Virus record (IMG/VR): IMGVR_UViG_2565956731_000004
Location: 1-38,221 of that record
Length of the DNA: 38,221 bases
Source of the DNA: a virus
Lineage: Duplodnaviria; Heunggongvirae; Uroviricota; Caudoviricetes
Reading direction: 5' to 3' (one strand)
Shown: piece by piece, positions 2,818 to 11,907 of the stretch
How the letters are laid out: every line of letters begins with the position of its first letter
Numbering within the stretch: the stretch's first letter is position 1
Translations under genes and position numbers: made by a program
Notes under the pieces: model-generated
Seen by the model: the letters and a program-made list of their open reading frames with translations, nothing else
Told to the model about the DNA's origin: nothing
The model's database searches: none

Positions 2818-3060
2818 ATGGGCAAAGAATATAAAACTCTCATTAACAAAGCACTTGAGCGTTTTTATTTTCGCTTAAGTGCATCAGGCGCTCATGCTGA
2901 ACGTGCAGCCCGTGACTCATTGACCAGAGCAATCCGGAGTCTGTATGACGTGGCTTTTTACGCTGATGATCTGGATGCACTTAACGAACTTTCCGAGTTG
3001 ATCTGTGCCGCAGAATGCGGGGAACATATTGAACCGTATAAGCTGGGAAATATCGCATGA
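2818..3060 (+). CDS. hypothetical early protein
   Basis: 80 aa; AAAGGG RBS 7 nt upstream of the ATG. Confidence 0.5.
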   Translation: MGKEYKTLINKALERFYFRLSASGAHAERAARDSLTRAIRSLYDVAFYADDLDALNELSELICAAECGEHIEPYKLGNIA

Positions 3061-5462: not shown

Positions 5463-8285
5463 ATGACGGCAGAGTACATCAGGGACTGGCAACAACCGCG
5501 CCACGCAGTGGGGCGTGAAGGAACGGGGATCCCCGCTCCTGAATCCGCGCTTTCCTCCTGGCTGGATGCCTACCGGGTAGAGAACGAGCGCCGCCAGGAA
5601 ATGGCTGATGCGGCATTCTCCGCAACGCCGCTGGGCAACCTGATTAATAAAAGCCTGGACGCACAGGAAAAACAGGACAAAACCATCACACTGGCAAGAG
5701 ACGCCAGAAAACAGGCACGCGGCGCGGTGGATGAAGCCATGGCCTCGCTGCGCCTGCTGCCGTCCTATCTGCGCGATCCGCTTATTCGCCACCTCTCCTT
5801 CCTGCGCAAAAAACAGGAAGCCGATCGTCAGAAAGGCAAAAAGAGCTGGCAGGCAGAACGATATGCGCGCGGAACCCTGCGCAGGATATTCGAACGTCTG
5901 GACCGCACCGACACTCGCTGGCTGACACCGGCTTATCGCTCTCTTGCCGGACGTGAACGCCTGGATGATTTGCTTTACCTGCCGCAGCTCAACAAACACC
6001 AGATACAGACGCTGGCCACCATGACGGCGGCGATGTTCAGCAGCACTTTCGAAACACTCTGCGATAACTTTGGCGCGACCGATGGCGAGCTGACCATGAA
6101 AATCGCGCTGAAGGCGTATCAGATGCTGGCCCGCATGGCGTTACATCTGCACACCATGCCGCCGCATTACGAAGCACTGAGAACGGACAAAGACCGGAAG
6201 AACGCACCGGATACGGAGCTGCTGCCGGGGGCCATCCTTCGCCTGACCTGTGCGGAATGGTGGAAACGCAAACTGTGGCTGTTGCGTTGCGAGTGGCGGG
6301 AAGAACAACTCCGCGCCGCCTGTCTGGTTTCCAGAAAAACATCAGCCTATCTGAGCCAGGACGCGTTAAGCGAGTTTCGCGCACAGCGCGAGAAAACACG
6401 CGACTTCCTGAAAAGTTTCATGCTGGAAAACGAAGACGGATTCACGATTGATCTCGAGACAGTGTATTACGCAGGCGTCAGTAACCCGGTTCACCGTAAG
6501 GCAGAAATGATGGCCACCATGAAGGGGTTGGAACTTCTGGCCGAAGCCCGTGGCGACAAAGCGGTGTTTCTGACTGTCACCTGCCCGTCAAAATACCACG
6601 CAACAACGGAGAACGGTCATCCGAATCCCAGATGGAACGGGGCCACCATGCGCGACTCCAGCGATTACCTTGTTAACACGTTTTTTGCGGCGGTCCGCAA
6701 GAAACTGAACCGTGAGAAATTGCGCTGGTATGGCATCCGCACGGCGGAGCCACACCATGACGGCACGGTGCACTGGCATATGATGGTTTTTGCGCATCCG
6801 GATGAAATAGACACCATTGTGTCCCACGTCCGCGATATTGCCATTCAGGAAGACCGCCACGAGCTGGGTGATGACATAACCCCGCGCTTTGAGGCGGAGT
6901 ACGTCGACGGCTCAAAAGGCACACCGACCAGCTACATCGCCACCTACATCGGAAAAAACCTGGACAGCCGCGCCGTGGATGGCATCGACCCGAAAACGGG
7001 CAAGCCACGCGTTGACCACGAAACCGGAAAATCAATGGCCGAGAGCGTGGAGCGCGCCATCGGCTGGGCGCGCCTTCACCGGGTCCGCCAGTTCCAGTTC
7101 TTTGGTATCCCCTCCCGCCAGGTCTGGCGTGAACTGCGCCGCCTTGCCAGCCAGATGGCACGCAATCCGGGAGGCCCGCAACGTCTGGAAAATGACGCAA
7201 TGGACGCGGTACTCGCTGCCGCTGATGCCGGGTGTTTTGCCACCTACATTGAGAAACAGGGCGGCGTACTTGTTCCACGCAAAGACTACCTGATTCGCAC
7301 CGCCTACAACCTCGCAGATGAACTGAACGATTACGGCGAACAGAGCGTACAGATTTACGGGATCTGGTCGCCGCTCATCGGGGAGTCTTCCCGTGTGTGC
7401 ACGCACCCGGATAACTGGAAGCTGGTAAGACGTAAACCGGAAGCGGAAGACAGTGCCCACGAAAATGGTTTTGACCTTCAGGGCGGCCCTGCCGCCCCTT
7501 GGACTCGTGGCAATAACTGTCCCCGTGTACAGGAAACGGACAACAACGGGACAGAACAGCCGGAAGAACGGCCAGCACCGTGGCCGCAGCTTCCTGACGG
7601 CATTGAAGTGAACGAATGGATGCGCTCACTGAAACGGCACGAACGCCGGGCGCTGATGCGTTCGCTGCGTGACAAACAGGCCAAAAACAGCAGTGATGAA
7701 ATGCAGAGCTGGACACAGAGCCGCAAACAGCCGCGGCCTTTGCCTGATAACCACGAATTACTCGCTAAAGAATGGCGGGAGTCTGCTGAATCTCTCGGAC
7801 TGCATATTGGTGAACAGCAGATGCAGCACCTGTTACGGGGCGGCAGTCTGTACGTTGACGGCAGCATCATTGCACCGCAGGGATTTGAAATTGTACGCAA
7901 ACCGGATACCCGCCCGGACAGCCGAATCACGCAGCTCTGGCAGCGCCTGAGCCGTAATCACGGCGTAAGCAGCACGGAGATCCGCCATAACCCGGTCGCC
8001 AGCTATCTGGAACAGCTGGGGGCATCAGACCCTGAAGCCGCCACACGCCTGGCATCCACACTTCAGCAGGACCAGAACACCATGAAAACACCCGTTACCG
8101 TGCTTTCTGACATGCTGCGCGCCATCCGCGACGCAGAGCACGCACAGAGAATCAGTGAAACCACTGAACGTGCCCGCCGCAAAGCAGACCTGCTGCGGAG
8201 TGGCCTGACCAGTGGAAACAAAAAACAGACAGAAACGGGATTCACAAATCCCGTAAATGAGCAAAAAACGCGCCGCGATATATGA
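5463..8285 (+). CDS. A: replication initiation endonuclease (P2 gene A-like, HUH rolling-circle initiator) with long C-terminal extension
   Basis: 940 aa; HUH motif HWHMMVF and catalytic tyrosine pair SYIATYIGKN; from memory, about 180 aa longer than P2 A at the C-terminus. Confidence 0.9.
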   Translation: MTAEYIRDWQQPRHAVGREGTGIPAPESALSSWLDAYRVENERRQEMADAAFSATPLGNLINKSLDAQEKQDKTITLARDARKQARGAVDEAMASLRLLPSYLRDPLIRHLSFLRKKQEADRQKGKKSWQAERYARGTLRRIFERLDRTDTRWLTPAYRSLAGRERLDDLLYLPQLNKHQIQTLATMTAAMFSSTFETLCDNFGATDGELTMKIALKAYQMLARMALHLHTMPPHYEALRTDKDRKNAPDTELLPGAILRLTCAEWWKRKLWLLRCEWREEQLRAACLVSRKTSAYLSQDALSEFRAQREKTRDFLKSFMLENEDGFTIDLETVYYAGVSNPVHRKAEMMATMKGLELLAEARGDKAVFLTVTCPSKYHATTENGHPNPRWNGATMRDSSDYLVNTFFAAVRKKLNREKLRWYGIRTAEPHHDGTVHWHMMVFAHPDEIDTIVSHVRDIAIQEDRHELGDDITPRFEAEYVDGSKGTPTSYIATYIGKNLDSRAVDGIDPKTGKPRVDHETGKSMAESVERAIGWARLHRVRQFQFFGIPSRQVWRELRRLASQMARNPGGPQRLENDAMDAVLAAADAGCFATYIEKQGGVLVPRKDYLIRTAYNLADELNDYGEQSVQIYGIWSPLIGESSRVCTHPDNWKLVRRKPEAEDSAHENGFDLQGGPAAPWTRGNNCPRVQETDNNGTEQPEERPAPWPQLPDGIEVNEWMRSLKRHERRALMRSLRDKQAKNSSDEMQSWTQSRKQPRPLPDNHELLAKEWRESAESLGLHIGEQQMQHLLRGGSLYVDGSIIAPQGFEIVRKPDTRPDSRITQLWQRLSRNHGVSSTEIRHNPVASYLEQLGASDPEAATRLASTLQQDQNTMKTPVTVLSDMLRAIRDAEHAQRISETTERARRKADLLRSGLTSGNKKQTETGFTNPVNEQKTRRDI
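8233..8257. repeat. 25-bp repeat with internal palindrome ACGGGATT-N4-AATCCCGT (copy 1, inside the 3' end of A)
   Basis: aaacgggattcacaaatcccgtaaa; second copy 73 bp downstream. Confidence 0.7.
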
Positions 8286-8305
8286 AGCGCACACAAAACA
8301 GGCAA

Positions 8306-8330
8306 AAACGGGATTTCAGAATCCCGTAAA
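8306..8330. repeat. 25-bp repeat with internal palindrome (copy 2, upstream of the parM-like gene)
   Basis: aaacgggatttcagaatcccgtaaa; flanks the presumed promoter of the parM-like operon; candidate centromere or operator site. Confidence 0.7.
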
Positions 8331-8361
8331 CGATTAATTAATCAACATAAGGAAAAGCGAC

Positions 8362-9321
8362 ATGAAAATTTGTATCGACGACGGCTCCACCAACATCAAG
8401 CTGGCATGGACTGAGAACAGCGAACGCCGCAACGCCATCAGCCCGAACAGCTTCAAGTCGGAATGGTCTGCGCCGTTCGGTGGCTCGCAGCCTGCGAACT
8501 ACATGCTTGATGGCGTGCGCTATGGTTTTGATCCGGTCAGCGATCGCTTTGTCCAGACGACCGACACGCAATACCAGTACAGCGATGTGAATGTAATCGC
8601 CATTCACCACGCGCTGGTCAAATCAGGCATCACACCACAGGAGGTGGATGTGGTTGTCACCCTGCCACTGAGCGAGTATTTCGACACAAACGCACAGCCG
8701 GACATGGCCAACATCAACCGCAAAAAAGCAAACGTCATGCGCCCGGTGGAGTACCAGAACGGCGAAGCATTCACTATCCGTAACGTGCGGGTTATGCCTG
8801 AATCCATTCCGGCTGGCTTTAAGGCACTGGCTGACATGAGTCCGTTTGAATCCCTGCTGATTGTGGATTTAGGCGGAACCACGCTGGATGTGGCAAAGGT
8901 CCAGGGACAACTGGCAGGTATCAGCCAGGTGTTTTGCGATCCACACGTAGGCGTTTCCCTGATGGCCGATGCCGTACTGTCGGTGATGGCCACTAACGGT
9001 ATGCGTACCAGTCACCATATCGCCAATACCATTATCGAACATCGCCACGATGAAGCCTGGCTGCGCCAGCACATCCACAATGACGCGCATTACGACAGCC
9101 TGATGGCGGTTATTCGTGAAAAGGAAGAAACACTGAAACAACGAGTGATCCGCGCGCTGGCGGGTTTTTCGGGTTACGGGCGGGTGATGGTTGTCGGTGG
9201 CGGGGCGGAGATTGTGGCACCCGCTATCCGCGAAGCCTGCGGAGTTAATGCGACTTTCATCGCGGACGGGGTGCCACAGTTTGCTCTGGTTAATGGGCTG
9301 TACGCAATGGACAAGGAGTAA
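8362..9321 (+). CDS. actin-like ATPase, ParM/StbA family
   Basis: 319 aa; N-terminus MKICIDDGSTNIKLAW...ISPNSFK...YQYSDVNVIAIHHAL closely parallels the recalled plasmid R1 ParM N-terminus (MLVFIDDGSTNIKLQW...SPNSFK...WQYSDVNVVAVHHAL); glycine-rich VDLGGTT and VVGGGA motifs. Confidence 0.8.
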   Translation: MKICIDDGSTNIKLAWTENSERRNAISPNSFKSEWSAPFGGSQPANYMLDGVRYGFDPVSDRFVQTTDTQYQYSDVNVIAIHHALVKSGITPQEVDVVVTLPLSEYFDTNAQPDMANINRKKANVMRPVEYQNGEAFTIRNVRVMPESIPAGFKALADMSPFESLLIVDLGGTTLDVAKVQGQLAGISQVFCDPHVGVSLMADAVLSVMATNGMRTSHHIANTIIEHRHDEAWLRQHIHNDAHYDSLMAVIREKEETLKQRVIRALAGFSGYGRVMVVGGGAEIVAPAIREACGVNATFIADGVPQFALVNGLYAMDKE

Positions 9322-9325
9322 ACCA

Positions 9326-9637
9326 ATGACGACACCAACCAGACGGATAAGTTTCTATCTGAAGCCCGCCGCCGTCAAGAACGAAGGCGAAGCATGCGCC
9401 TGGCTGGACAGCCTTACACCAGAAGCCCGCAAAAGCGGCCAACGTGTGGCTTTTCTGGCCGGGCTGGCACTTCTGAAAATGAATCCGGCAGAGGCTTACC
9501 GACTGGCTGCATGGGCTGACGATGAGGCGTTATCAGTGACACAAACCAGGACAGAACGCCCCGCGTCACAGCCAGTACCAACCTCACAGATAACCAGTCG
9601 GATGGCCGGAAATATCAGGGCGTTATTTCCCGAATAA
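9326..9637 (+). CDS. ParR-like small DNA-binding adaptor
   Basis: 103 aa from the ATG 4 nt after the parM-like stop (AAGGAG RBS); RRISFYLKP...LDSLTPEARKSGQRVAFLAGLALL...IRALFPE resembles the recalled R1 ParR pattern (RRTIAFKLNP...LDSIP...AALTAGLAL...LRSLFPKE). Confidence 0.6.
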   Translation: MTTPTRRISFYLKPAAVKNEGEACAWLDSLTPEARKSGQRVAFLAGLALLKMNPAEAYRLAAWADDEALSVTQTRTERPASQPVPTSQITSRMAGNIRALFPE

Positions 9638-9642
9638 CACAA

Positions 9643-9666
9643 CATCAGGGCGCATCCGCCCTGATG
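9643..9666 (+). other. perfect 10-bp-stem hairpin between the parR-like gene and the next cassette
   Basis: catcagggcg-catc-cgccctgatg; a third copy of ATCAGGGCG at 9614..9622 inside the parR-like 3' end; no T-run follows, so not a canonical terminator. Confidence 0.5.
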
Positions 9667-9700
9667 ACTTTAATCCGGGAACATAAACAAGGGGGACACA

Positions 9701-10033
9701 ATGCAACACATTGACAGAGAAAAAGCGCAGCGACTGATTGAGCGGATGGAAGCGCTGGCGAAAGAAGAAAATGTCAACATCCAAAAAATAGCTGAATGTG
9801 GCCAGATAGTTCTTCGTCGTGAAAAAGACCTCAAACAACTGATGTCTGGCGAAACCAGCAAAACATGGACTTCAGGCGAGGAGACGATTTATTGCAGCTT
9901 CTGCAATAAATCTCAGTACGAAGTCACAAAGGTGATTGCCGGACCGTCTGTTTGCATCTGCAATGAGTGCGTGGATTTGTGCAATGAAATTATCAGGAGA
10001 GAAGTGACAGACAAAAAGGGAAAAAACGCATGA
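9701..10033 (+). CDS. protein with C-terminal ClpX-type C4 zinc-binding domain
   Basis: 110 aa; C-terminal [34 protein letters not shown] is near-identical in pattern to the E. coli ClpX N-terminal domain ([34 protein letters not shown]); about 60 aa of unrelated N-terminal sequence; AAGGGGGA RBS. Confidence 0.7.
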
Positions 10034-10368
10034 ACAGAAAACAAAAACAAGAGTTGAAATACTTTTTACGTAAAGAAATTGCCAGGCTTGAAGATGCAGA
10101 ATCACAATCATCAGAAATTCCGTTCGGAATGGATATCAACGACGCCCGTATGCTCCAGGCATACCGCATAGCTCAGGCTGCACTACAGGCAAAACCGTCA
10201 GATGGACTGGTTAGAGCAGTACGATTCTATGAACTGGTAAAGCGTGAGAATCCGCCAGCCGAAACCGGAGCATGGAAAGACGCTGTTGACTGGGTACTCA
10301 AAGAGGCTTGTCAGGTTGTAAACACTGGCATCAAAGGAGACCTAGCCCAGCCTGCATCAAAGCTATAG
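10030..10368 (+). CDS. hypothetical protein translationally coupled to the ClpX-zinc-finger-domain protein
   Basis: 112 aa; ATGA overlap with upstream gene; followed by an intrinsic terminator. Confidence 0.55.
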
Positions 10369-10379
10369 AAATGAGCCAA

Positions 10380-10406
10380 AACGCCCTCTTCCAGGGCGTT
10401 TATTTC
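10380..10406 (+). terminator. intrinsic terminator closing the cargo operon
   Basis: AACGCCCT-cttcc-AGGGCGTT followed by a T-rich tract, 12 nt after the stop. Confidence 0.7.
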
Positions 10407-10408
10407 AA

Positions 10409-10435
10409 TGCACAATAGTGCACAAATTTGCACAA
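10409..10435. repeat. three TGCACAA repeats with exact 10-bp phasing
   Basis: TGCACAA at 10409, 10419 and 10429; a fourth copy at 10501..10507. Confidence 0.6.
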
Positions 10436-10478
10436 TTTTTTTGAACGACTTTTTGCCCTTCCGGCCCGCGTGGCGGCT

Positions 10479-10522
10479 GGATCCGTCAAGGATCCGTGCG
10501 TGCACAAAAAAACGCGTTTTTT
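10479..10522. repeat. tandem 11-bp repeat GGATCCGT plus palindrome A7-CGCG-T6
   Basis: ggatccgtcaa / ggatccgtgcg at 10479..10500; aaaaaaacgcgtttttt at 10506..10522. Confidence 0.55.
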
Positions 10523-10810
10523 CTGCGCGCAGGTGACGGGGGAACAGCCCGCGTTTCAGGGGGTAAATAGCGTTCCCTTAACGATGTCGCAGCGACACGA
10601 CAGAATGGCCGTATCTCTCACGCTGAGCGTGAAAAAGACGTGAGGGATTCTGATTTGATGGAGTGAAAGGTAAGGCCGTCAAAATCGCACTGAGGCGGCG
10701 AAGAACATGCAGTCAACGCGGTGGGATTGCGTAAGAGCCTGACCGTCGATGATGGCAAAAAGCTGGAAGGCGTCGTGAAATTATCTGACTGATACAGGAG
10801 CTGGAGAGTC

Positions 10811-10852
10811 GGGGCATAAATTTTTTATGCCCCGGCGAGGCAGCAGACAAGC
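10811..10852. other. candidate cos region (hairpin plus GGCGAGGC-type cohesive-end sequence)
   Basis: Palindrome GGGGCATAAA-TTTTTTATGCCCC (10811..10833) followed by GGCGAGGCAGCAGACAAGC (10834..10852); from memory the P2 cohesive end begins GGCGAGGCGGGG; located just outside the 3' end of Q, where P2 cos lies. Confidence 0.35.
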
Positions 10853-10860
10853 GAAGCGCG

Positions 10861-11907
10861 TCAGGATGTGGGCTGGGTGTCTAACAGTGCGTAAGGGTTA
10901 AAGCGGATCACCTCTTCGCCAAGCCAGTCATTGATGTGCTTCATGGCCTCCATAACGGGCATCAGCTCGTTAATTGCGTAAACCCGCGCTGCCTTCTCCA
11001 CATCACCAAACGCACTTTTTTCGCCCGGCATCGCCCCCATCAGTTGCGGCGGAACGCGGTGCGCAGCCAGCACATCATCACGGGATGCCGCCTTAACATT
11101 CATGAACTCATCCTTTGCGGTGATCTGCTGGAACGGCAAAATTTGCACCCCCTCTTTGCCCCCGTTGGGCGCATGAATGAGCACGTTTTTAAACGCACCA
11201 CCACCACGTGCACCCTGTAGCGTTTCTTTCAGGGAGTCCATGCTTTCGCGGTTTACCTGCGCTGCACCGATGTAGATGATGCACCCGGCGTGGGATCCGT
11301 TGTCGTAATACAGTTTTCTGAACATGTCCGCCGAATGAGACAGGCTGGCCGAGAGTAATGCGCCAAGATATTCCGGCATGCCGTAGATTTCCTGGTTAAT
11401 GTCAGGATTCATCAGGTGGCACACTTTGCCAGGGCGAAACTGAAACGCATCCTTGCCATCCTGCACATACCACCATGATTCAAGATCGCTTCCGCGTCGC
11501 ATGTATTTCGCCAGGGCGTGCCGTAATTTAAGCGGTTCGCCGAGCATATTGCTTCGAAGCTCAAGGAATGCGTTACCGAACACAAACCAGTCCAGCGCCA
11601 GCGCCGAAAAATCCTGCCGGGAAAGCAGCGGGTGCGGAATATAGCAACCGAGCAATACATTGCGCTTAAAGTAAAGCGCAGACTGATGCCAGGACGTTTG
11701 CCGGGCGGCTCTTGCCAGACCGTACCAGTCCACCGGGGTTTCATACCACCGCCCGTTATCAGCACAGTACATATTGTCCAGCAGGTCATGCCCGGTCAGG
11801 CGATAAGGACCATCAAATGTGAATGCACTGAGCGACGATTCTTTCCTGAGCGCATCAGCGAGATCAATGCGTGAACTCATGCGCACTTTTTTATTTTTTC
11901 TGCTCAT
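10861..11907 (-). CDS. Q: portal protein (P2 gpQ-like)
   Basis: 348 aa; size, position and leftward orientation paired with the large terminase as in P2. Confidence 0.85.
   Translation of the reverse strand: MSRKNKKVRMSSRIDLADALRKESSLSAFTFDGPYRLTGHDLLDNMYCADNGRWYETPVDWYGLARAARQTSWHQSALYFKRNVLLGCYIPHPLLSRQDFSALALDWFVFGNAFLELRSNMLGEPLKLRHALAKYMRRGSDLESWWYVQDGKDAFQFRPGKVCHLMNPDINQEIYGMPEYLGALLSASLSHSADMFRKLYYDNGSHAGCIIYIGAAQVNRESMDSLKETLQGARGGGAFKNVLIHAPNGGKEGVQILPFQQITAKDEFMNVKAASRDDVLAAHRVPPQLMGAMPGEKSAFGDVEKAARVYAINELMPVMEAMKHINDWLGEEVIRFNPYALLDTQPTS

Follow-up and report, generated by a model that had tools for sequence, protein, structure and literature searches.

A free-standing ClpX-type zinc-binding domain protein of a P88-like Escherichia coli prophage and its possible action as a ClpX docking-domain decoy

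The DNA analysed in this work, hereafter the window, is the 38,221-nucleotide IMG/VR record IMGVR_UViG_2565956731_000004, and as a whole corresponds to a P88-like (Xuanwuvirus, P2 family) prophage of Escherichia coli. It contains two adjacent open reading frames (ORFs), ORF1 and ORF2, which an initial annotation made from the sequence alone had described as a two-gene operon. We found that ORF1 belongs to a small family of enterobacterial phage proteins made of a helical hairpin, a flexible linker and a C-terminal zinc-binding domain (ZBD) of the type found in the unfoldase ClpX, and that ORF1 and ORF2 are two independent accessory genes and not a two-component system. As a tentative interpretation, which we prefer to the alternatives discussed below, ORF1 may be a mimic of the ClpX N-domain, working as a competitive decoy for the adaptors and substrates that dock on ClpX.

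Results

ORF1 contains a ClpX-type zinc-binding domain and no AAA+ module

The coding region of ORF1 and its parts are listed here; model confidence is given as predicted local distance difference test (pLDDT), and gene names are those of the Prokaryotic Genome Annotation Pipeline (PGAP).

9690 to 9695, plus strand: strong Shine-Dalgarno sequence AGGGGG, 5 nucleotides 5' of the ORF1 ATG, read from the sequence.
9701 to 10033, plus strand: ORF1, 110 amino acids, PGAP name 'ClpX C4-type zinc finger protein', phrog_6797 (E = 1e-57).
9701 to 9847, plus strand: N-domain of ORF1, residues 1-49, a family-specific two-helix hairpin (model helices 6-23 and 27-48, pLDDT 73-91).
9848 to 9883, plus strand: flexible linker of ORF1, residues 50-61, with a length that varies among homologues (pLDDT <50 for residues 54-59).
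9884 to 10012, plus strand: ClpX-type ZBD of ORF1, residues 62-104 (Pfam, phmmer, alignment and fold).

The ZBD that the initial annotation had recognised was confirmed by a hidden Markov model search, in which Pfam PF06689 (zf-C4_ClpX) matched residues 64-99 over profile positions 2-38/39 with E = 2.9e-16 and 59.5 bits, the gathering cut-off of this model being 27 bits. When ORF1 was compared to the PDB with phmmer, the solved structures of the E. coli ClpX ZBD (1OVX, 2DS5-8) were retrieved with E values of ~1e-17 to 4e-18. The core of ORF1 is identical to residues 12-54 of E. coli ClpX at 30 of 43 positions, which include all four zinc-ligand cysteines, and over 37 residues of the ZBD the identity is 78%. 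The predicted zinc ligands of ORF1, C65-x2-C68 and C87-x2-C90, align with C15/C18/C37/C40 of ClpX (numbered from M1), and the four cysteines are invariant or nearly so in the ORF1 family.

The predicted structure points in the same direction. In the AlphaFold model of ORF1 (mean pLDDT 76) the C-terminal part shows the β-hairpin zinc ribbon and C-terminal helix of this fold, and it superposes on 2DS5/2DS8, the complex of the ZBD with the SspB tail, with a root-mean-square deviation (rmsd) of 0.7 Å and 72% identity. With respect to 2DS5, 2DS6 and 2DS8, the predicted model fits within 0.7-0.8 Å over 40 residues, with a match probability of 1.00. The lack of any AAA+ module, also claimed at the outset, was evident from the NCBIfam ClpX models TIGR00382 and PRK05342, which gave 48.5 and 45.8 bits as compared to cut-offs of 370.75 and 359, respectively, and whose match was confined to profile positions 3-52. 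By all the sequence and fold criteria applied, ORF1 is to be classed as a PF06689 domain member and not as ClpX itself. Older records mislabel this protein 'carboxylate-amine ligase'.

The comparison of the docking pocket was limited to two contact residues, F16 and I46 of ClpX, whose counterparts in ORF1, F67 and I97, are both kept. Among the aligned homologues, F67 is identical in at least 90%, while position 97 is Ile in ~90% and Val in the rest. In ClpX, F16 and I46 belong to a hydrophobic pocket that overlaps the site of lambda O and is also used by SspB, RssB and trigger factor, and both residues are needed for the trigger-factor enhancement (PMC7804408).

The ORF1 family and its evolution

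The N-domain of ORF1 matched no known fold or sequence in Pfam, profile and fold searches. An exhaustive profile search with this domain against 1.84 billion representative proteins gave 17 matches at E ≤ 0.001. All six complete matches that were read (109-129 amino acids) carry a C-terminal ZBD; the others are mostly short proteins of 29-111 amino acids, several of which are fragments, and two long ones (906 and 603 amino acids) aligned in 5-6 short stretches only. No fusion partner other than the ZBD was found in this search.

Full-length relatives are present in P88-like prophages of E. coli and E. albertii (85-96% identity), in phage D6 and the 108-kb phages PhiR41_1 and CMS-2020a (~50%), in P2-like prophages of Salmonella (~43%), where the linker contains an 11-residue insertion, and on one contig with a short, lambdoid-looking array of small genes (69%). 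With respect to the window protein, the N-domains of the family go down to 24% identity, as compared to 49-81% for the ZBDs. The family ZBDs share 51-89% identity with E. coli ClpX, at least 68% in 8 of 9 members, and some are nearer to ClpX than to each other; in P0018, for example, 33 of 37 residues are identical to ClpX and 30 of 37 to the window protein.

At the DNA level the ORF1 ZBD is 64% identical to clpX, and the same codon is used at 12 of the 30 identical residues. Since the DNA is only 64% identical and the synonymous sites are scrambled, the likeness to ClpX is old and kept by selection on the protein, and the ZBD is under strong purifying selection. The scrambled synonymous sites also led us to reject a recent capture of this domain from the host clpX. 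A comparison of phage ZBDs aimed at host tracking had little to discriminate, since the ClpX ZBDs of Pseudomonas and E. coli are nearly identical.

ORF1 and ORF2 are inherited independently

The stop codon of ORF1 and the start codon of ORF2 share an ATGA (ORF1 ends at 10033, ORF2 starts at 10030 and ends at 10368). The initial annotation was right about this overlap; the functional coupling that it drew from it did not survive the analysis of 5,426 complete E. coli genomes. The body of ORF1 was found in 112 of these (~2%, including O145, O55:H7, UTI89 and ST131 strains) and the N-terminal module of ORF2 in 184, and only 87 had the two side by side. Thus, 25 of the 112 genomes with ORF1 have no adjacent ORF2, 97 of the 184 with the ORF2 N-module have no ORF1, and the conserved co-occurrence expected of a two-gene defence or toxin-antitoxin (TA) system is missing.

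The genes next to ORF1 and its homologues vary from one context to another. Salmonella P2-like prophages have no co-oriented gene 3' of the ZBD gene, in phages D6 and PhiR41_1 the ORF1 homologue lies directly 3' of Ea22-like genes, and phage-plasmids also place ORF1 homologues beside other genes. Conversely, ORF2-like genes occur also in P2-like prophages that contain neither ParMR nor ORF1. A natural deletion between two 14-nucleotide direct repeats (L017, ~3025-3060), present in E. coli O26:H11 11368 and in numerous further genomes, has removed almost all of ORF1 and left ORF2 in place. In this allele, codons 1-8 of ORF1 are in frame with the ORF2 leader, giving an annotated 135-amino acid protein. 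The repeats are located in the window as follows.

9712 to 9725, plus strand: left copy of the 14-nucleotide direct repeat (TGACAGAGAAAAAG), from the repeat search; deletion junction in E. coli O26:H11 11368.
10005 to 10018, plus strand: right copy of the 14-nucleotide direct repeat (TGACAGACAAAAAG), from the repeat search.

The surroundings of the ATGA junction are conserved even in alleles with ORF1 only, and divergence starts right after it. For this reason, we regard the overlap as the boundary of a cassette and not as a proof of partnership.

In other strains (L012-L016 with P0007; L018), the slot 3' of the ZBD gene is occupied by a YafO-family toxin gene or by a Doc/Phd pair on the opposite strand. 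One such variant reads ParM-ParR-ORF1 followed by the Doc/Phd pair, and another has ORF1, a gap of 61 nucleotides, an unrelated gene for 174 amino acids and the YafO toxin gene. These TA genes illustrate the turnover of cassettes at the hotspot.

ORF2 is a mosaic helical protein

10030 to 10368, plus strand: ORF2, 112 amino acids, an all-helical mosaic prophage protein (phrog_26213/phrog_660).
10030 to 10200, plus strand: N-module of ORF2, residues 1-57, found also fused to a different C-terminal module (the 135-amino acid protein of L017).
10201 to 10341, plus strand: C-terminal module of ORF2, residues 58-104, common to many prophage proteins.

The partner protein had been thought to be of unrecognised family. 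In fact, it matches phrog_26213 and phrog_660 with E values of ~1e-28 and has 591 relatives. It is a mosaic whose C-terminal module, with about 30 invariant columns in the alignment, is widely shared: it is carried by lambdoid and Shiga toxin (Stx) phages, other phages and plasmids of ~42-146 kb with 75-95% amino acid identity, and in E. coli O26:H11 11368 the N-module is joined to a different C-terminal one.

The C-terminal module is also carried by some Pfam Ead_Ea22 proteins (P0161, P0180), whose Pfam domain lies on the N-terminal part; residues ~58-104 of ORF2 share ~82% identity with the C-terminal ends of P0161, P0166 and P0180. Many non-Ea22 proteins end in this module as well, most of its carriers being not Ea22-like, and therefore it does not define the Ead/Ea22-like family. 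ORF2 itself has no Pfam match at E ≤ 1, and hence none to PF13935, whereas the true members of this family (P0180, P0161 and the L003 protein) score with E values from 2e-18 to 1e-31. The hypothesis that ORF2 is an Ea22 homologue was rejected at the family level on account of this missing match and of the lack of similarity to the Ea22-like protein of L003.

The model of ORF2 is a four-helix protein with a pLDDT of 71. By sequence, nothing was found in the PDB at E ≤ 10, and the fold search in PDB and BFVD gave nothing at E ≤ 0.001, with chance-level helical matches of which the best had E = 0.23. A weak match to RcdA, an adaptor of ClpXP (E = 2.2, rmsd 12 Å), was dismissed as noise.

A few additional features of ORF2 were observed. 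The DNA of the C-terminal module (10201-10341) is ~88-93% identical in lambdoid and Stx phages, podophage-named isolates and plasmids, and far more conserved than its flanks, as if it served as a recombination joint between swappable modules. Most homologues stop at ...IKGD/E, while the window frame continues for 8 residues (LAQPASKL, window 10339-10368), apparently because of a single-nucleotide difference at the usual stop (gac-c-tag); the 112-amino acid form is common, P0063 representing 230 member sequences. In the widespread proteins P0072-P0078 (191 amino acids), an N-terminal ParM (StbA_N) fragment is fused to the C-terminal ~68 residues of ORF2, which implies a deletion of the remaining parM, parR, ORF1 and the ORF2 N-module. 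One of them, P0075, is found on 143 contigs.

Position of the two genes and transcription unit

8362 to 9321, plus strand: ParM/StbA actin-like partition ATPase, 5' of ORF1 and co-oriented with it (Pfam StbA_N, E = 8e-82; ParM_N, E = 1e-68; PGAP name in a near-identical locus).
9326 to 9637, plus strand: StbB/ParR-like plasmid stability protein (Pfam Plasmid_stab_B, E = 1.6e-24; phrog_2515 partition protein).
9643 to 9666, plus strand: GC-rich hairpin with a 10-bp stem between parR and ORF1 (folding free energy, ΔG, -19.6 kcal/mol, z = -4.1).
10381 to 10405, plus strand: intrinsic-terminator-like hairpin with a U-rich tail, closing the unit after ORF2 (fold).

Phage P88 is 98.5% identical to the window over positions 8300-10860, and 2,537 of the 2,570 places at which E. 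coli sequences match the window are chromosomal. The gene order is gpA (5463-8285), ParM, StbB/ParR, ORF1 and ORF2, followed on the opposite strand by the portal gene Q (10861-11907). The two genes therefore lie in the gpA-gpQ interval, from the replication gene A to the portal gene Q, which has been defined as a hotspot of genetic diversity (Rousset et al. 2022, PMC9122126), in agreement with the P2 cargo hotspot of the initial annotation. The ZBD gene lies 3' of gpA, and has the same orientation, in all the P2-like contexts observed. The replication endonuclease gpA of the window has 940 amino acids, as compared to 763 and 838 amino acids of the gpA-family genes adjoining the ZBD genes of Salmonella P2-like prophages, the additional region of the former being C-terminal.

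No sigma-70-like site was detected 5' of ORF1 or parM at the consensus threshold of the scanner, the sole match being within ORF2. Since there is no promoter-like site just 5' of ORF1, a unit consisting of parM-parR-ORF1-ORF2, or a longer one, is more likely than the two-gene operon originally proposed. ORF1 and ORF2 would then lie at the distal end of a longer unit transcribed rightward, which would be this one or the early operon, and parM is probably in the same transcription unit as ORF1. The hairpin at 9643-9666 is not an obvious terminator of rightward transcription; it has no U-tract on the plus strand, and the terminator scan found it terminator-like on the minus strand only. As for the strong terminator that had been placed after ORF2, the hairpin at about 10381-10399 (AACGCCCU/AGGGCGUU) is followed by UAUUUC and has a ΔG of -14.8 kcal/mol (z = -3.4), so that 10381-10405 can reasonably be considered an intrinsic terminator, although the strict terminator scanner left this hairpin out of its list.

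A complete ParM/ParR (StbA/StbB) plasmid-partition cassette (8362-9637) is thus borne by an integrated P2-like prophage. A 43-nucleotide repeat is present in two copies, 81% identical, one within the 3' end of gpA (8218-8260) and the other in the gpA-parM spacer (8291-8333), and each contains the palindrome ACGGGATT-N4-AATCCCGT; these repeats may represent the centromere (parC), to which ParR would bind, and the operator of the ParMR cassette of the prophage. About one quarter of P2-like phages have a partition system in the gpA-gpQ interval, and it has been suggested that those with such a system are possibly maintained as plasmids (Rousset et al. 2022, PMC9122126).

Defence systems and previous records of the locus

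PADLOC gave no match for ORF1 and only one with E = 0.013 (12 bits) for ORF2, and the Pfam and NCBIfam scans detected no TA domains in either protein. Table S5A of Rousset et al. 2022 (PMC9122126) contains the entry 'StbA + Plasmid_stab_B + zf-C4_ClpX + hypothetical' with WP_001163776 and WP_001080490; the near-identical locus of NCTC9022 has the same two proteins in its PGAP annotation. Among the supplementary files of that work that were searched as text, the ClpX zinc-finger label is present in Table S5A only, and the StbA-Plasmid_stab_B-zf-C4_ClpX arrangement does not belong to the systems for which protection is reported there (PMC9122126). Both the identification of the domain and the locus itself are already public, through the PGAP name and this catalogue. 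Our literature search retrieved no functional study of stand-alone ClpX ZBD proteins and nothing relevant on phage inhibitors of ClpX.

Discussion

ORF1 as a possible decoy of the ClpX docking domain

The levels of RpoS, SOS mutagenesis proteins, antitoxins, lambda O-type initiators and Mu transpososomes are governed by ClpXP, in each case through docking on the ClpX N-domain. This domain dimerises by itself, and MuA, FtsZ and adaptors dock on it, whereas ssrA does not (PMC5415555); SspB and RssB are among the adaptors that dock on it (PMC5415555; PMC7804408). Because it has neither the AAA+ motor nor the ClpP-docking elements, ORF1 is unable to unfold or degrade anything itself. It would most likely form ZBD-mediated dimers that show the same hydrophobic docking pocket as the host ClpX. 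Such dimers would compete for the adaptors SspB, RssB, UmuD and trigger factor, and for N-domain-dependent substrates such as lambda O-like initiators, MuA transpososomes and FtsZ; the ClpXP-dependent turnover or remodelling of docked clients would fall, and ssrA-type substrates would be spared. The N-domain of ORF1 would probably add oligomerisation, and hence avidity, or a second binding specificity.

Competition is the simplest interpretation because a free protein shows the same domain, with intact pocket residues and the signs of strong purifying selection. We also counted as support for a general theme the recurrence of bare ZBDs in other phages. The idea of the initial annotation of a detached ZBD that sequesters the adaptors and substrates of ClpX, or pairs with ClpX itself, fits these data as well.

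Some observations weigh against a decoy. The N-domain and its tether are conserved and not needed by a pure decoy, given that phages PP9W2 and Cr30 carry bare ZBDs, and the real activity may reside in the N-domain. The high conservation of the ZBD might have no other cause than what the structure of a small dimer held by zinc requires. Moreover, the allele in the window has C85 (Y35C, numbered from M1) at a position where ClpX and most homologues carry Tyr, Phe or Trp, and the consensus scan found no sigma-70-like promoter 5' of ORF1.

Alternative explanations

The structural argument can be extended to a role of ORF1 unrelated to ClpXP, in which the ZBD is a compact zinc-stabilised dimerisation module and the activity resides in the N-domain; like other small early proteins of the 'ea' type, ORF1 could for instance regulate phage development or partition. 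In D6, PhiR41_1 and the lambdoid contig, the gene is indeed part of a series of small mosaic genes of early or accessory type (eaa, ea22 and similar); in P2-like phages it is always 3' of the replication gene and co-oriented with it, and all ZBDs show strong conservation on structural grounds. However, many simpler dimerisation modules exist, and the retention of the pocket residues together with 68-89% ClpX identity in 8 of 9 divergent members exceeds the needs of the fold; the ZBD of the Pseudomonas phage is far more diverged and still scores as the domain. We consider this explanation rather unlikely.

ORF1 might otherwise behave as an adaptor by mimicry, its ZBD forming a mixed dimer with the ClpX ZBD or bridging to a ZBD-binding adaptor, so that a ligand of the N-domain is tethered to ClpXP for degradation, or the ClpX ring is jammed; ClpXP would be redirected and not starved. 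The succession of a binding domain, a flexible tether and a docking element parallels the layout of tethering adaptors such as SspB, and the linker is of low confidence in the model and variable in length. The N-domain, superfluous for a simple decoy, is conserved and in all cases joined to the ZBD, which in turn is often nearer to the host ClpX than to the other family members, as matching of interfaces predicts and as seen in P0018 (33/37 vs. 30/37). On the other hand, the N-domain matches no known fold or sequence, and ClpX ZBD dimers are stable and intramolecular within the hexamer, for which reason subunit exchange with the free protein may be poor. An adaptor of this kind is in our opinion unlikely, and we give still less credit to its more specific form, in which the ZBD pairs with or displaces the ClpX N-domain, or bridges to an adaptor, and the N-domain recruits a chosen target. 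If true, such recruitment would allow temperate phages of enterobacteria to steer the main regulatory protease of the host in a programmable manner, beyond blocking it, and could be used for destroying a defence or competitor-phage protein or for excluding ClpX-dependent phages such as Mu.

Finally, an obligate ORF1-ORF2 pair acting as a TA, abortive-infection or defence cassette, which the ATGA overlap, the similar sizes, the terminator, the known defence hotspot and the TA genes (Doc/Phd, YafO) of nearby slots might recall, is largely excluded by the distribution data and very improbable, given the independent assortment of the two genes, the widespread and evidently tolerated deletion of ORF1, the PADLOC results and the fact that the arrangement, although catalogued in Table S5A, does not appear with the protective systems of Rousset et al. 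2022.

Implications

If the decoy that we tentatively prefer is real, RpoS and lambda O-like initiators would be stabilised, SspB-assisted degradation would be weaker and ClpX-dependent Mu development would be impaired, while direct degradation of ssrA substrates would barely change. An active, prophage-borne copy of the docking domain would represent a simple and genetically portable retuning of several ClpXP circuits in lysogens or during infection, and the occurrence of bare ZBDs in unrelated phages indicates that the principle may be general. The mimic hypothesis is specific, plausible and easy to test.

Comparison with known systems

The closest known counterpart is the E. coli ClpX ZBD, which shares with ORF1 the four-cysteine zinc site, 30 of 43 residues, the predicted fold within 0.7 Å and the F16/I46 pocket. 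With respect to ClpX, the ZBD of ORF1 is C-terminal instead of N-terminal, a phage-specific helical hairpin takes the place of the AAA+ motor, the ClpP-docking element is absent and the Y35C replacement is present. The bare phage ZBDs (phrog_12435 'protease', PP9W2 and Cr30) resemble ORF1 in being stand-alone ClpX-type domains near replication or early genes, but they have neither the helical N-domain nor the linker and are more diverged from ClpX. In Pseudomonas phage PP9W2, gp081 is a bare ZBD of 65 amino acids (L021, 2495-2692) encoded between a DksA/TraR-like gene and ninB, just past the replication genes, and in Caulobacter phage Cr30 gp170 is one of 41 amino acids (L022, 1594-1719). The use of free ZBDs may recur among phages.

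ORF2, for its part, resembles Ead/Ea22-like proteins (PF13935) in its swappable modules, in its occurrence in 'ea'-type arrays and in the last ~48 residues, which are ~82% identical in some of them. The C-terminal domain of lambda Ea22 is alpha/beta (PMC10834534), whereas the module of ORF2 is helical in the model, and ORF2 has no PF13935 match.

Our literature search found no characterised phage precedent for a decoy of a receptor domain. Modulators of AAA+ proteolysis, of phage or host origin, include lambda RexB, T4 PinA, T7 gp4.5 and the anti-adaptors IraD/IraM/IraP. Like ORF1, these are small accessory proteins that alter, as proposed or shown, the choice of substrates by a housekeeping protease; to our knowledge, none of them copies the docking domain of the protease itself, and none is similar in sequence to ORF1. 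A copy of the docking domain joined to a private N-domain would be a new twist on the known modulation of host AAA+ proteases by phages.

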